Shown here piece by piece: positions 15,001 to 21,000 of a stretch of DNA of 24,660 bases. How positions within the stretch are numbered: the stretch's first letter is position 1; every line of letters begins with the position of its first letter. The DNA lies in the IMG/VR virus record IMGVR_UViG_2534681934_000023; one strand, 5' to 3'. Position numbers: made by a program. The DNA comes from a virus. Taxonomy: Duplodnaviria; Heunggongvirae; Uroviricota; Caudoviricetes.

Positions 15001-18000
15001 GGAGCATGACGAATGGGTAAAGGAAGCAGTAAGGGGCATACCCCGCGCGAAGCGAAGGACAACCTGAAGTCCACGCAGCTGCTGAGTGTGATCGATGCCA
15101 TCAGCGAAGGGCCGGTTGAAGGTCCGGTGGATGGATTAAAAAGCGTGCTGCTGAACAGTACGCCGGTGCTGGACAGTGAGGGGAATACCAATATATCCGG
15201 CGTCACGGTGGTGTTCCGGGCCGGTGAGCAGGAGCAGACACCGCCGGAGGGATTTGAATCCTCCGGCTCCGAGACGGTGCTCGGTACAGAAGTGAAATAT
15301 GACACGCCGATCACCCGGACCATCACGTCGGCAAACATCGATCGTCTGCGCTTTACTTTCGGTGTGCAGGCACTGGTGGAAACCACCTCAAAGGGGGACA
15401 GGAATCCATCGGAAGTCCGCCTGCTGGTTCAGATACAGCGTAATGGTGGCTGGGTGACGGAAAAAGACATCACCATTAAGGGCAAAACCACGTCGCAGTA
15501 TCTGGCCTCGGTGGTGGTGGATAACCTGCCGCCGCGCCCGTTTAATATCCGGATGCGCAGGATGACGCCGGACAGCACCACAGACCAGCTGCAGAACAAA
15601 ACGCTCTGGTCGTCATACACCGAAATCATCGATGTGAAACAGTGCTACCCGAACACGGCACTGGTTGGCGTGCAGGTGGACTCGGAGCAGTTTGGCAGTC
15701 AGCAGGTGAGCCGTAATTATCATCTTCGCGGGCGCATTCTGCAGGTGCCGTCAAACTATGATCCGGAGACGCGGCACTTACAGCGGCATCTGGGACGGAA
15801 CGTTTAAACCGGCATACAGCAACAACATGGCCTGGTGTCTGTGGGATATGCTGACCCATCCGCGCTACGGCATGGGGAAACGTCTTGGTGCGGCGGATGT
15901 GGATAAATGGGCGCTGTATGTCATCGGCCAGTACTGCGACCAGTCAGTACCGGACGGCTTTGGCGGCACGGAGCCGCGCATCACCTGTAATGCGTACCTG
16001 ACCACGCAGCGCAAGGCGTGGGATGTGCTCAGTGATTTCTGCTCGGCGATGCGCTGTATGCCGGTATGGAACGGGCAGACGCTGACGTTCGTGCAGGACC
16101 GGCCGTCGGATAAGGTGTGGACCTATAACCGCAGTAATGTGGTGATGCCGGATGATGGCGCGCCGTTCCGCTACAGCTTTAGCGCCCTGAAAGACCGCCA
16201 TAATGCCGTTGAGGTGAACTGGACTGACCCGGACAACGGCTGGGAGACGGCGACAGAGCTTGTGGAGGACACGCAGGCCATTGCCCGTTACGGTCGTAAC
16301 GTCACGAAGATGGATGCCTTTGGCTGTACCAGTCGGGGGCAGGCACACCGTGCCGGGCTGTGGCTGATTAAAACGGAACTGCTGGAAACGCAGACCGTGG
16401 ACTTCAGCGTGGGCGCAGAAGGGCTTCGCCATGTACCGGGCGATGTCATTGAAATCTGTGATGATGACTATGCGGGGATCAGCATCGGTGGGCGTGTGCT
16501 GGCGGTGAACAGCCAGACCCGGACGCTGACGCTCGACCGTGAAATCACGCTGCCATCCTCCGGCACCACGCTGATAAGCCTGGTTGACGGAAGTGGCAAT
16601 CCGGTCAGCGTGGAGGTTCAGTCCGTCACCGACGGCGTGAAGGTAAAAGTGAGCCGGGTTCCTGACGGTGTTGCTGAATACAGCGTGTGGGGGCTGAAGC
16701 TGCCGACGCTGCGCCAGCGCCTGTTCCGCTGCGTGAGTATCCGTGAGAACGACGACGGCACGTATGCCATCACTGCCGTGCAGCATGTGCCGGAGAAAGA
16801 GGGCATCGTGGATAACGGGGCGCACTTTGACGGTGACCAGAGCAGCACGGTGAATGGTGTCACGCCGCCAGCGGTGCAGCACCTGACCGCCGAAGTCTCC
16901 GCAGACAGCGGGGAATATCAGGTGCTGGCGCGATGGGACACGCCGAAGGTGGTGAAGGGTGTGAGCTTCCTGCTTCGCCTGACCGTGGCAGCGGATGACG
17001 GCAGTGAGCGGCTGGTCAGCACGGCCCGGACGACGGAAACCACATACCGCTTCACGCAGCTGGCGCTGGGGAACTACAGGCTGACAGTCCGGGCGGTAAA
17101 TGCGTGGGGACAGCAGGGCGATCCGGCGTCGGTATCGTTCCGGATTGCCGCACCGGCAGCGCCGTCACAGATTGAGCTGACACCGGGCTATTTTCAGATA
17201 ACCGCCACGCCGCATCTTGCGGTTTATGATCCGACGGTACAGTTTGAGTTCTGGTTCTCGGAAACGCGGATTGCGGATATCAGGCAGGTTGAAACCAGCG
17301 CGCGTTATCTTGGTACGGCGCTGTACTGGATAGCCGCCAGTATCAATATCAAACCGGGCCATGATTATTACTTTTATATCCGCAGTGTGAACACCGTTGG
17401 CAAATCGGCATTCGTGGAGGCCGTCGGTCGGGCGAGCGATGATGCGGAAGGTTATCTGGATTTTTTCAAAGGCAAGATAACCGAATCTCATCTCGGCAAG
17501 GAGCTGCTGGAAAAAGTCGATCTGACGGAGGATAACGCCAGCAGACTGGATGAGTTTTCGAAAGAGTGGAAGGACGCTAACGATAAATGGAATGCCATGT
17601 GGGGCGTCAAAATTGAGCAGACCAAAGACGGCAAACATTATGTCGCGGGTATTGGCCTCAGCATGGAGGACACGGAGGAAGGCAAGCTGAGCCAGTTTCT
17701 GGTTGCCGCCAATCGTATCGCGTTTATTGACCCGGCAAACGGGAATGAAACGCCGATGTTTGTGGCGCAGGGCAACCAGATATTCATGAACGACGTGTTC
17801 CTGAAGCGCCTGACGGCCCCCACCATTACCAGCGGTGGAAATCCACCGGTATTTTCCCTGACATCAGACGGAAAGCTGACCGCTAAAAATGCGGATATCA
17901 GTGGCAGTGTGAATGCGAACTCCGGGACGCTCAACAACGTCACGGTAAATGAAAACTGTACGATTAAGGGCATGCTGGAGGCGACTCAGGTCAGAGGTGA

Positions 18001-21000
18001 CTTCGTTAAAGCTGTATCCAAATCATTTCCGAAACAGGCTGGTACGTGGGGTAACACGGAAACACCAAACGGGACGGTTACAGTCACCATCAGCGATGAT
18101 CATAACTTTGACCGTCAAATCATTATTCCGCCCATTATCTTTAACGGAATAGCGTATAGCGATCCGGGAAGTGGTAATAACCCGGGAGGTACAAGATACA
18201 CGGGTTATGGTTTTGAAGTTCGCAAAAACGGTGTATTAATCGCATCCAGAGAAACTAAAGGGGCCATTCCCGGTAGCTACAGTGCGGTTATTGATATGCC
18301 GAGTGGCAGGGGAAGCGTCACTCTGGAGTTTAAGGTTTTCCATAAAGGCAATCAGCGGGCAGGTAATATCACCGACTGTACGGTGATTGTGACCAAAAAA
18401 GCGGCTTCCGGCATCAGTATCCGTTGAAATATTTATAACCCTAATAACGGGCGCCAGAAATGGCGCCTTTTTTATTGCAGAAAATCGGGAGGTAATTATG
18501 CGTAAAGTTTGTGCAGCAATTTTGTCCGCAGCCATTTGTCTGGCCGTATCCGGTGTGCCTGCATGGGCGTCTGAGCATCAGTCCACGCTGAGCGCAGGAT
18601 ATCTTCATGCCAGTACGGACGCTCCCGGCAGCGATGATCTGAACGGGATTAACGTGAAATACCGTTATGAGTTTACGGACACACTGGGGCTGATTACGTC
18701 CTTCAGTTATGCCAACGCCGAAGATGAGCAAAAAACGCATTACAGCGATACCCGCTGGCATGAGGATTACGTGCGTAACCGCTGGTTCAGCGTGATGGCA
18801 GGGCCGTCTGTGCGTGTGAATGAATGGTTCAGTGCGTATGCGATGGCGGGTGTGGCTTACAGCCGTGTGTCGACTTTTTCCGGGGATTATTTCCGCGTAA
18901 CTGACAACAAGAGGAAAACGCACGACGTGCTGACCGGAAGTGATGACGCTCGCTACAGCAACACATCTCTGGCGTGGGGGGCTGGCGTGCAGTTTAACCC
19001 GACCGAATCAGTGGCCGTTGATGTCGCTTATGAAGGCTCCGGCAGCGGTGACTGGCGCACTGACGGTTTCATCGTGGGTGTCGGTTATAAATTTTGATTA
19101 GTAACACAGCGTTATGACAGCCCGCCGGTTCAGGCGGGCTTTTTTGTGGAGTGGGTATGGCAGCAGTACAAATATCAGGCGTGCTGAAAGATGGTGCGGG
19201 AAAACCAATACAGAACTGCACCATTCAACTGAAAGCCAGACGTAACAGCACCACGGTGGTGGTGAACACGGTGGCCTCTGAAAATCCGGATGAGGCAGGG
19301 CGTTACAGCATGGACGTCGAGTATGGTCAGTACAGCGTCACTCTGTTGGTGGAGGGATTCCCGCCATCACATGCCGGGACCATCTCCGTGTATGAAGATT
19401 CTCAACCGGGTACGCTGAATGATTTTCTCGGTGCCATGACGGAGGATGATGCCCGTCCGGAGGCACTGCGTCGTTTTGAACAGATGGTGGAAGAAGCAGC
19501 GCGTCACGCAGAGGAGGCGAAGAAGAATGCCGGAGAAGCAGAGACGTCCGCGAGGAATGCCGGCATATCAGCCAGTAAGGCGGAAGCGAGCGCCGCAAAT
19601 GCTGATACTTCAGCAGAGGATGCATCGGAGTCAGCCCGGCAGGCGGCAGAAAGTGCAGCCTCTGCAAAGAAGTCAGAGGAAGCGTCCTCGTCCTCAGCCT
19701 CTGAGGCCGCTCAAAAAGCCAGTGAGTCATTACAAAGTGCAACAGATGCCGAGTTGTCAAAAAAGACGGCAGAAAGTGCAGCCGGTAATGCAGCCAGGGA
19801 TGCAACGACCGCAACAGAAAAAGCCCGGGAATCAGCAGAAAGCGCACAGTCAGCGGAACAAAGCAGAATAGCGGCGGAAGACGCCGTAAACAGAATTCCC
19901 ACCGTGGTGGGGCCTCCCGGACCAAAGGGGGAACCGGGTCCCGCGGGTCCTCAGGGGCCGAAGGGAGATAAAGGAGAGCGTGGAGACACCGGTCCGGCAG
20001 GGGCAACCGGTGAACGGGGACCGGGAGGAGATACAGGTCCGGCAGGTCCGCAGGGGCCGAAAGGCGACAGGGGAGAGCGGGGAGAGACCGGTCTGACAGG
20101 AAGTACAGGTCCACAGGGGCCAAAGGGAGATACCGGGGCAACAGGTCCGGCAGGACCGCAGGGACCGAAAGGGGAAACAGGTGCGGCTGGCCCGGTGGGG
20201 GCTACCGGACCTCAGGGGGCGAAGGGCGACCCGGGGGAGACACAAATACGGTTCCGTCTGGGGCCGATGAGAATTATTGAGACAAACAGCTATGGCTGGT
20301 TCCCGGGTACAGATGGTGCGCTCATCACCGGACTGACCTTTCTTGACCCCAAAGATGCCACACAGGTTCAGGGGATGTTTCAGCATTTGCAGGTCAGATT
20401 TGGTGACGGGCCATGGCAGGATGTTAAGGGACTGGATGAAGTGGGCAGTGATACAGGCAGAACTGGAGAATGACATGAATATTTTGAGAAAGCTTATGCA
20501 GAGTCTGTGCGGTTGCGGAAAGCATGATGACTGTGAAAACGGACGGTCACTTACAGCACAATTGCGACTGGGACCGGCAGACATTCTGGAGTCAGATGAG
20601 AATGGCATTATTCCGGAGCAGGACAGGGTAATCACACAGGTGGTGATACTGGATGCAGATAAAAAGCAGATACAGTGTGTGGTAAGACCGCTGCAAATCC
20701 TGCGTGCTGACGGGACGTGGGAAAATATTGGCGGGATGAAGTAACCCGACAGCTTCACAAAACCGGAGTCCGGCTCCGGTTTTTGTTGTCATGTCCGGTG
20801 GATGTTTGTTAGGAAAGCAAAGATGGCAAAACTGCTGGAGGTTTTGTGGTTGAGTATGCCAATATAATTAATAGATTAAAGAGTTAGTTGTGAAGAAAAT
20901 ATGGATAAACAGGACGACGAATGCTTTCACCGATAAGGACAACTTTCCATAACTCAGTAAATATAGTGCAGAGTTCACCCTGTCAAACGGTTTCTTTTGC

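Follow-up and report, generated by a model that had tools for sequence, protein, structure and literature searches.

Host-specificity gene J of a lambda-type prophage is broken into two overlapping open reading frames (ORFs) in the stretch of DNA analyzed here (the window; all 24,660 nucleotides of our excerpt of IMG/VR virus record IMGVR_UViG_2534681934_000023), and the question raised by this locus is whether the break is a lesion carried by the bacterium or one introduced when its genome was assembled. The initial annotation had read it as a single-base indel contributing to cumulative decay of the prophage, unless it was a sequencing artefact. We found that the 5' part of the gene is a mosaic of the J alleles of two prophages of Escherichia coli O157:H7, Sp3 and Sp8, that the extra base lies where one allele gives way to the other, and that the mosaic is private to one draft genome; mosaic and frameshift together are probably a mixed-paralog consensus artefact of that draft.

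A J gene split by one extra base

Exact-protein searches of indexed public assemblies (153 billion gene positions) placed both J fragments on one contig only, AIFO01000014.1 of draft GCA_000249455.2 from E. coli O157:H7 DEC4E. The window starts 67 nucleotides (nt) from the 5' end of this 259-kb contig, and the contig therefore begins inside the prophage; the window ends in nleH1, and the prophage flank at ybhB/bioA is seen in relatives only. The lysis, head, and tail genes, lom, the tail fibre gene, and the effector genes nleB2, nleC, and nleH1 identify the prophage as Sp3/CP-933K, and near-identity to Sp3 of strain Sakai extends through head, tail, and effector cargo (99.98% over 1-10485 and 99.79% over 11799-24660). 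Compared with the finished genome of 644-PT8 over 533-24660, the window shows no difference save a deletion next to an insertion sequence (IS), 23 positions in J, and two shortened T-runs. The finished relatives 319, 644-PT8, and 7636 share the IS insertion, and in each of them J is intact, encodes 1137 amino acids (aa), and is purely of the Sp3 type.

The two ORFs described in the initial annotation as forming a J-sized protein are present exactly as it gave them. The 5' ORF (15013..15807, + strand, frame 1) encodes 264 aa, deposited as EHV17274.1, "host specificity protein J [E. coli DEC4E]"; it comprises J residues 1-254, about 10 out-of-frame residues, and a TAA stop. The 3' ORF (15758..18427, + strand, frame 2, that is, the +1 frame) encodes 889 aa (EHV17275.1), with the true J sequence resuming at ...YSGIWDG. 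According to the ORF listing they overlap by 50 nt, and an in-frame ATG is present in the second at 15758.

The gene is a lambda-type host-specificity gene, as had been proposed, by its Pfam domains, by alignment to solved lambda J, and by synteny. The first ORF holds FNIII-A_GpJ (146 bits), and the second holds Phage-tail_3, Ig_J, Ig_J_second, Phage_Tail_Tip, and Ig_GpJ_C; the gpJ domain set is thus complete and in order (91-147 bits, all over the curated cut-offs), although split across the pair of ORFs. Alignment of the 264-aa fragment to the solved lambda J structures 8iyk and 9e7m covers their residues 1-255 (E ~1e-163). Pfam labels on the contig place M, L, K, and I upstream of J and lom and the side tail fibre gene downstream, in agreement with the Sakai annotation. 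Protein family, domain order, and the synteny M-L-K-I-J-lom-stf are common to window J and lambda gpJ/TipJ (NC_001416 lambdap21; 8iyk, 8k35, 9e7m), and the first 254 residues are ~97% identical between them. Lambda J differs in being 1132 aa long, whereas repaired window J would be 1137 aa, like the h434/Sp3-type alleles, and window J splits after residue 254. A gpJ gene is a single uninterrupted ORF of ~1130-1140 codons, which window J is not; the deposited sequence holds a truly disrupted J gene, a pseudogene as deposited, and not a chance pair of ORFs.

By nucleotide alignment and listing, the J interval is 3415 nt in the window and 3414 nt in the intact close homologues covered, which come from phages and from E. 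coli genomes and include PhiR49, lambda h434, Sakai Sp3, and 644-PT8, and this sole length difference maps to GAGACGCGGCACTTAC (15766-15781). The extra nucleotide that had been proposed is therefore there and is confined to the place proposed; the lambda J reading that the initial annotation gave across the break point agrees with J of NC_001416. Deleting G15773, C15776, or T15777, or swapping in either parental form of the junction (below), restores an ORF of 1137 aa that is free of further stops, and the net +1 base, removable within 15768-15778, is the only lesion in window J.

A mosaic of Sp3 and Sp8 J alleles

The extra base belongs to a hybrid junction, GAGACGCGGCACTTACAGC (15766..15784, + strand), in which nucleotide alignments show the left part (15768-15773) to be Sp8/lambda-type and the right part (CT at 15777-15778) to be Sp3-type. 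The Sp3 parental form reads GAAAAAC-GCACTTAC (protein EKRTY) and the Sp8/lambda parental form reads CAGACGCGGCA-ATAC (protein QTRQY); the window form, GAGACGCGGCACTTAC, is frameshifted. The Sp3 and Sp8 genes differ here by two compensating 1-nt indels that lie 3 nt apart, and the switch from one allele to the other falls in the intervening GCA, so that Sp8-type GACGCGGCA is joined to Sp3-type CTTAC between the compensating indels. The window is one base longer because it keeps the long form at both indels, that of Sp8 up to GCA and that of Sp3 after it. The junction is a splice of two intact alleles, and the frameshift is therefore a by-product of that splice and not an independent insertion.

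The same two sources account for every other difference in the gene. All 23 departures of window J from the Sp3 J of Sakai, 319, and 644-PT8 (22 substitutions and the inserted base) lie within 15111-15859, and at 23 of 23 positions the window carries the base of Sp8 J (Sakai 1645524..; WP_000515612.1), which also supplies the lambda-type junction string AGACGCGGCA. Past the patch, over 15860-18427 (the end of the gene), the window is identical to the Sp3 J of the finished relatives, with no difference from either Sakai or 644-PT8; this reference gene (Sakai ECs_0842; WP_000515426.1 in 319 and 644-PT8) occupies the same prophage and position and is intact. Sp8 J, which is 3399 nt long, is represented in the window by four short blocks only, and no diagnostic site outside the patch follows it: over the M-to-J region, 543 sites separate Sp3 from Sp8, and the window is Sp8-type at 23 of them, all in the patch, with no private bases.

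Inside the patch of ~750 nt there are 47 diagnostic sites, 23 of the Sp8 type and 24 of the Sp3 type, arranged in seven alternating blocks (7 runs, against 24.5 expected with independent sites). The first Sp8-type block (15111..15318, + strand) contains 13 diagnostic sites and is separated by four Sp3-type sites (15339-15363) from the second (15376..15408, + strand; 4 sites). The third (15768..15773, + strand) packs 4 diagnostic sites, the inserted G among them, into 6 nt, its flanking Sp3-type sites lying at distances of 1 nt and 3 nt, and the fourth (15805..15859, + strand; 2 sites) closes the patch and is followed by 89 nt identical in both paralogs. The stretch that bounds the patch on its other side and is likewise identical in Sp3 and Sp8 measures 86 nt. 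There are eight allele switches in all, and the six internal to the patch fall in stretches of identity of 20, 12, 29, 1, 3, and 17 nt; one of the Sp8 tracts measures at most 9 nt. Homologous crossovers require switching to scale with shared identity, and on that assumption such switch positions would have a probability of ~0.005. No bias toward G/C or A/T was found in the allele kept within the patch (10 versus 8, with 4 neutral; counted by eye).

The Sp8 allele is close at hand. Over its first 982 nt it is conserved at 100% in 60 of the 60 O157:H7-type genomes listed, including the closest finished relatives of DEC4E, and Sp8 and Sp3 are co-resident, in the same orientation, in every O157:H7 genome examined; DEC4E itself presumably carries Sp8 J as well.

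The hybrid, in contrast to its parents, was seen in this one draft. We searched for the 24-mer spanning the junction, CCGGAGACGCGGCACTTACAGCGG, whose parental counterparts are CCGGAAAAACGCACTTACAGCGG (Sp3) and CCGCAGACGCGGCAATACAGCGG (Sp8), and obtained 0 matches in IMG/VR (1-2 variable bases allowed), JGI metagenomes, and GTDB representatives. The junction is also absent from 5426 finished E. coli genomes, a set that includes the neighboring accession NZ_CP038397.1 (a DEC5A plasmid) and excludes CP038398, the closed DEC4E genome on record (PacBio and Illumina; PMC10758439). The best identity in this set is at most 99.3% for the whole J gene and 94.5% for a 91-nt segment at the junction. A third natural allele as the lone donor of the patch was considered and rejected, the best matches in the same genomes being 99.1% for the 331-nt upstream patch and 96.3% for the repaired 135-nt junction. 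In the 5975-member protein cluster, those members that were sampled are partial proteins from the N-terminus of J, with in-frame ends at residues 247-269; none of the sampled partial J proteins of the 90% cluster has the frameshifted tail, and all end in frame at contig ends.

Assembly, recombination, or a simple lesion

That the patch and frameshift are private to one draft, that J is intact in 319, 644-PT8, and 7636, and that every deviating base matches a co-resident paralog make the artefact, which the initial annotation had offered as a caveat, the better reading. Reads of the Sp8 J paralog would have been mixed into the DEC4E Sp3 J consensus, in the assembly rather than in the cell; the consensus would then flip between the Sp3 and Sp8 copies over ~750 nt and keep the inserted base of both compensating indels, giving +1, while the real DEC4E chromosome would hold an intact, pure Sp3-type J of 3414 nt, as do all finished relatives. 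The allele ratio of 23:24 is close to one that could result from mixing two single-copy paralogs 1:1, and because the background shows no substitutions relative to 644-PT8, there was almost no time for several independent events. The locus is also a habitual trouble spot for assembly, and contigs of other drafts end precisely here, as the partial J proteins with in-frame ends at residues 247-269 show. In genes L and K, Sp3 and Sp8 share an identical 1077-nt stretch (13328-14406), with the same K protein (WP_000194779.1) in both, and six short-read contigs of other assemblies start in the IS and stop at 13327, 13439, or 13455 in this repeat; that the DEC4E contig crosses both the 1077-nt repeat and a multi-copy IS suggests that it was bridged by pairing or gap filling. 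Paralogous prophage sequence in O157 is not resolvable with short reads (PMC5359411). Probable sequencing errors also lie further along the contig, in the nleC-nleH1 intergenic region, where T-runs at 23406 (T6 to T5) and 23436 (T8 to T7) are each 1 nt shorter than in Sakai, 319, and 644-PT8, as would be typical of homopolymer undercalls; unlike these, a G6 to G5 change at 23725 relative to Sakai is common to 319 and 644-PT8 and is a real lineage marker.

Chimeric or collapsed paralog consensus in drafts of enterohemorrhagic E. coli (EHEC) resembles the present case in being private to a draft, in drawing its variants from a co-resident paralog at ~1:1, and in its position at a contig-break locus; it differs in that mixing in the window affects 750 nt only and not the entire similar region. 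This confinement is the first of several observations that weigh against an artefact. Sp3 and Sp8 are 96-97% similar over 12957-17970, yet mixing is found only at 15111-15859, and the patch is the more divergent part (6.3%, against ~3.4% in the flanks). A simple collapse of the repeat should affect the flanks, which are less divergent, no less than the patch, and a local cause must therefore be assumed; a candidate would be an Sp8 segment that was left unassembled and whose reads were recruited to the patch. The identical stretches at the patch bounds would also suit real recombination, and the left IS junction, another strain-specific feature of this contig, recurs at 100% in two assemblies made independently; the contig is therefore not unreliable as a whole.

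These same observations speak for a real gene conversion private to the DEC4E lineage, which we consider possible but unlikely. One repair event would have copied ~750 nt of Sp8 J into Sp3 J, the alternating blocks arising from patchy heteroduplex correction or from a template that changed repeatedly between the sister copy and that of Sp8; one of the switches, falling between the compensating indels, would have inactivated J, a loss that would be neutral because Sp3 is unable to excise, replicate, or package and in this strain seems to be missing most of its tail genes too. The donor is co-resident in the same orientation, the patch is bounded by identical stretches that are among the longer ones near the 5' end of J, the mixing is local and does not extend across the whole 5-kb similar region, the left IS junction is a real strain-specific feature of the contig, and experiments have demonstrated recombination between O157 prophages (PMC2669165). 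The fine structure of the patch is harder to reconcile with such an event. Six internal switches within 750 nt, at identities down to 1 and 3 nt, are ill-suited to RecA crossovers, and they are also ill-suited to long-patch mismatch repair, the tracts of which run from hundreds of nucleotides to kilobases. The conversion would moreover have to be very recent, given a background without substitutions relative to 644-PT8, and no part of it is seen in any finished O157 genome, the mosaic occurring in one draft only. In its most specific form, to which we give rather little credence, a single double-strand-break repair in DEC4E would have alternated between Sp8 J and a sister Sp3 copy, with several template switches at microhomologies of 1-29 nt, and J would have been inactivated through separation of the compensating indels.

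Two further accounts fare far worse. An ordinary single-base insertion by replication slippage, or one miscalled base, in the course of gradual pseudogenization would explain a net difference of exactly +1 nt, the return of the ORF on removal of one base, and the company of other lesions in the prophage. The junction does not, however, contain a homopolymer such as slippage would favor, its runs being of 2 nt at most; three adjacent substitutions, together with the extra base, rebuild a 10-nt string of the Sp8/lambda type, 19 more Sp8-type substitutions lie nearby, and the chance of 23 independent changes all hitting the paralog base is negligible. The match of 23 of 23 positions to Sp8 J effectively refutes a simple indel, which we hold to be very improbable, and the isolated lesion proposed by the initial annotation gives way to one inside a patch in which 23 of 47 sites are Sp8-type. 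Programmed +1 ribosomal frameshifting, or a functional split gene, has in its favor the 50-nt overlap of the ORFs and the in-frame ATG at 15758, and we would give it practically no weight. Hundreds of homologues spanning the full length (at least 3414 nt) are found in finished genomes and phages, and each one examined directly is a single ORF; the two-frame arrangement is conserved nowhere, and its junction is unique to one assembly. When 15758-15807 was read directly, none of the known +1 motifs (for example, CUU-UGA-C) was seen; a shift anywhere past 15778 would replace a conserved segment of J, and the prophage is non-functional.

Other lesions of the prophage and the meaning of the split

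The remaining damage to this prophage has a different distribution. The portal gene is split into ORFs of 374 aa (6331-7455) and 120 aa (7550-7912), corresponding to pseudogene ECs_0827 in Sakai, and the split is present at 100% identity in 319 and 644-PT8; it is a genuine lineage-wide lesion of Sp3, unlike the J frameshift. An IS629/IS1203 element of the IS3 family occupies 10486-11798, with junctions at 10485/10486 and 11798/11799, and ATA is found on both sides of it. Its right junction, in the tape-measure gene, is common to 12 finished O157:H7 genomes, 11 of them at 100%, including 319, 350, 644-PT8, 180-PT54, and 7636. Its left junction adjoins a truncated head-tail gene of the Gifsy-2 family, and ~4.8 kb is missing there (Sakai Z, U, V, G, and T and the 5' part of H). 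This left junction occurs in no finished genome, and it is present at 100% in GCA_002464985.1 (NJJE01000061.1) and in Logan SRR15415547; the 76-aa ORF at the left junction matches two other short-read assemblies, and the 293-aa product matches relatives only. The 4.8-kb tail-gene deletion may be real or may reflect a collapse of two IS copies. The suggestion of cumulative decay thus stands for the portal split (shared with Sakai, 319, and 644-PT8) and for the IS insertion (shared with the 12 finished genomes) and probably does not extend to J.

Downstream of J, the side tail fibre gene (19151-20473) encodes long collagen-like Gly-X-Y repeats and an N-terminal half rich in Ala, Ser, and Glu. 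A single substitution (19811), common to 644-PT8, sets it apart from Sakai, and a second IS1203 insertion in the 644-PT8 side tail fibre gene is absent from the window. The type III effector cargo nleB2, nleC, and nleH1-1 (20921-24660) is intact and identical to that of the finished relatives; intact effectors beside decaying phage functions are consistent with selection for the cargo.

Sp3 of Sakai is without a repressor and replication genes, has a defective integrase and a defective portal, and does not circularize, replicate, or package its DNA; its host-specificity gene was scored as intact (PMC2669165). The DEC4E prophage additionally carries the IS in its tape-measure gene and the apparent 4.8-kb deletion of tail genes. 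Since Sp3 was already dead and the DEC4E copy bears these further lesions, a frameshift in J would be selectively neutral. The J lesion is most likely not real biology; if it is real, it would be ordinary pseudogenization in a dead prophage by a mildly interesting mechanism. It would then be a small example of conversion between co-resident defective prophages that kills a gene by uncoupling compensating indels, a natural bacterial "hybrid incompatibility" of two functional alleles within one gene brought about by fine-scale ectopic conversion, and it would have no evident phenotypic effect, Sp3 being already immobile. What looks like a pseudogene here is two intact alleles spliced together, and in draft EHEC genomes a frameshift in a prophage gene that is present in several copies should be counted as decay only after a check against paralogs, finished genomes, or reads.

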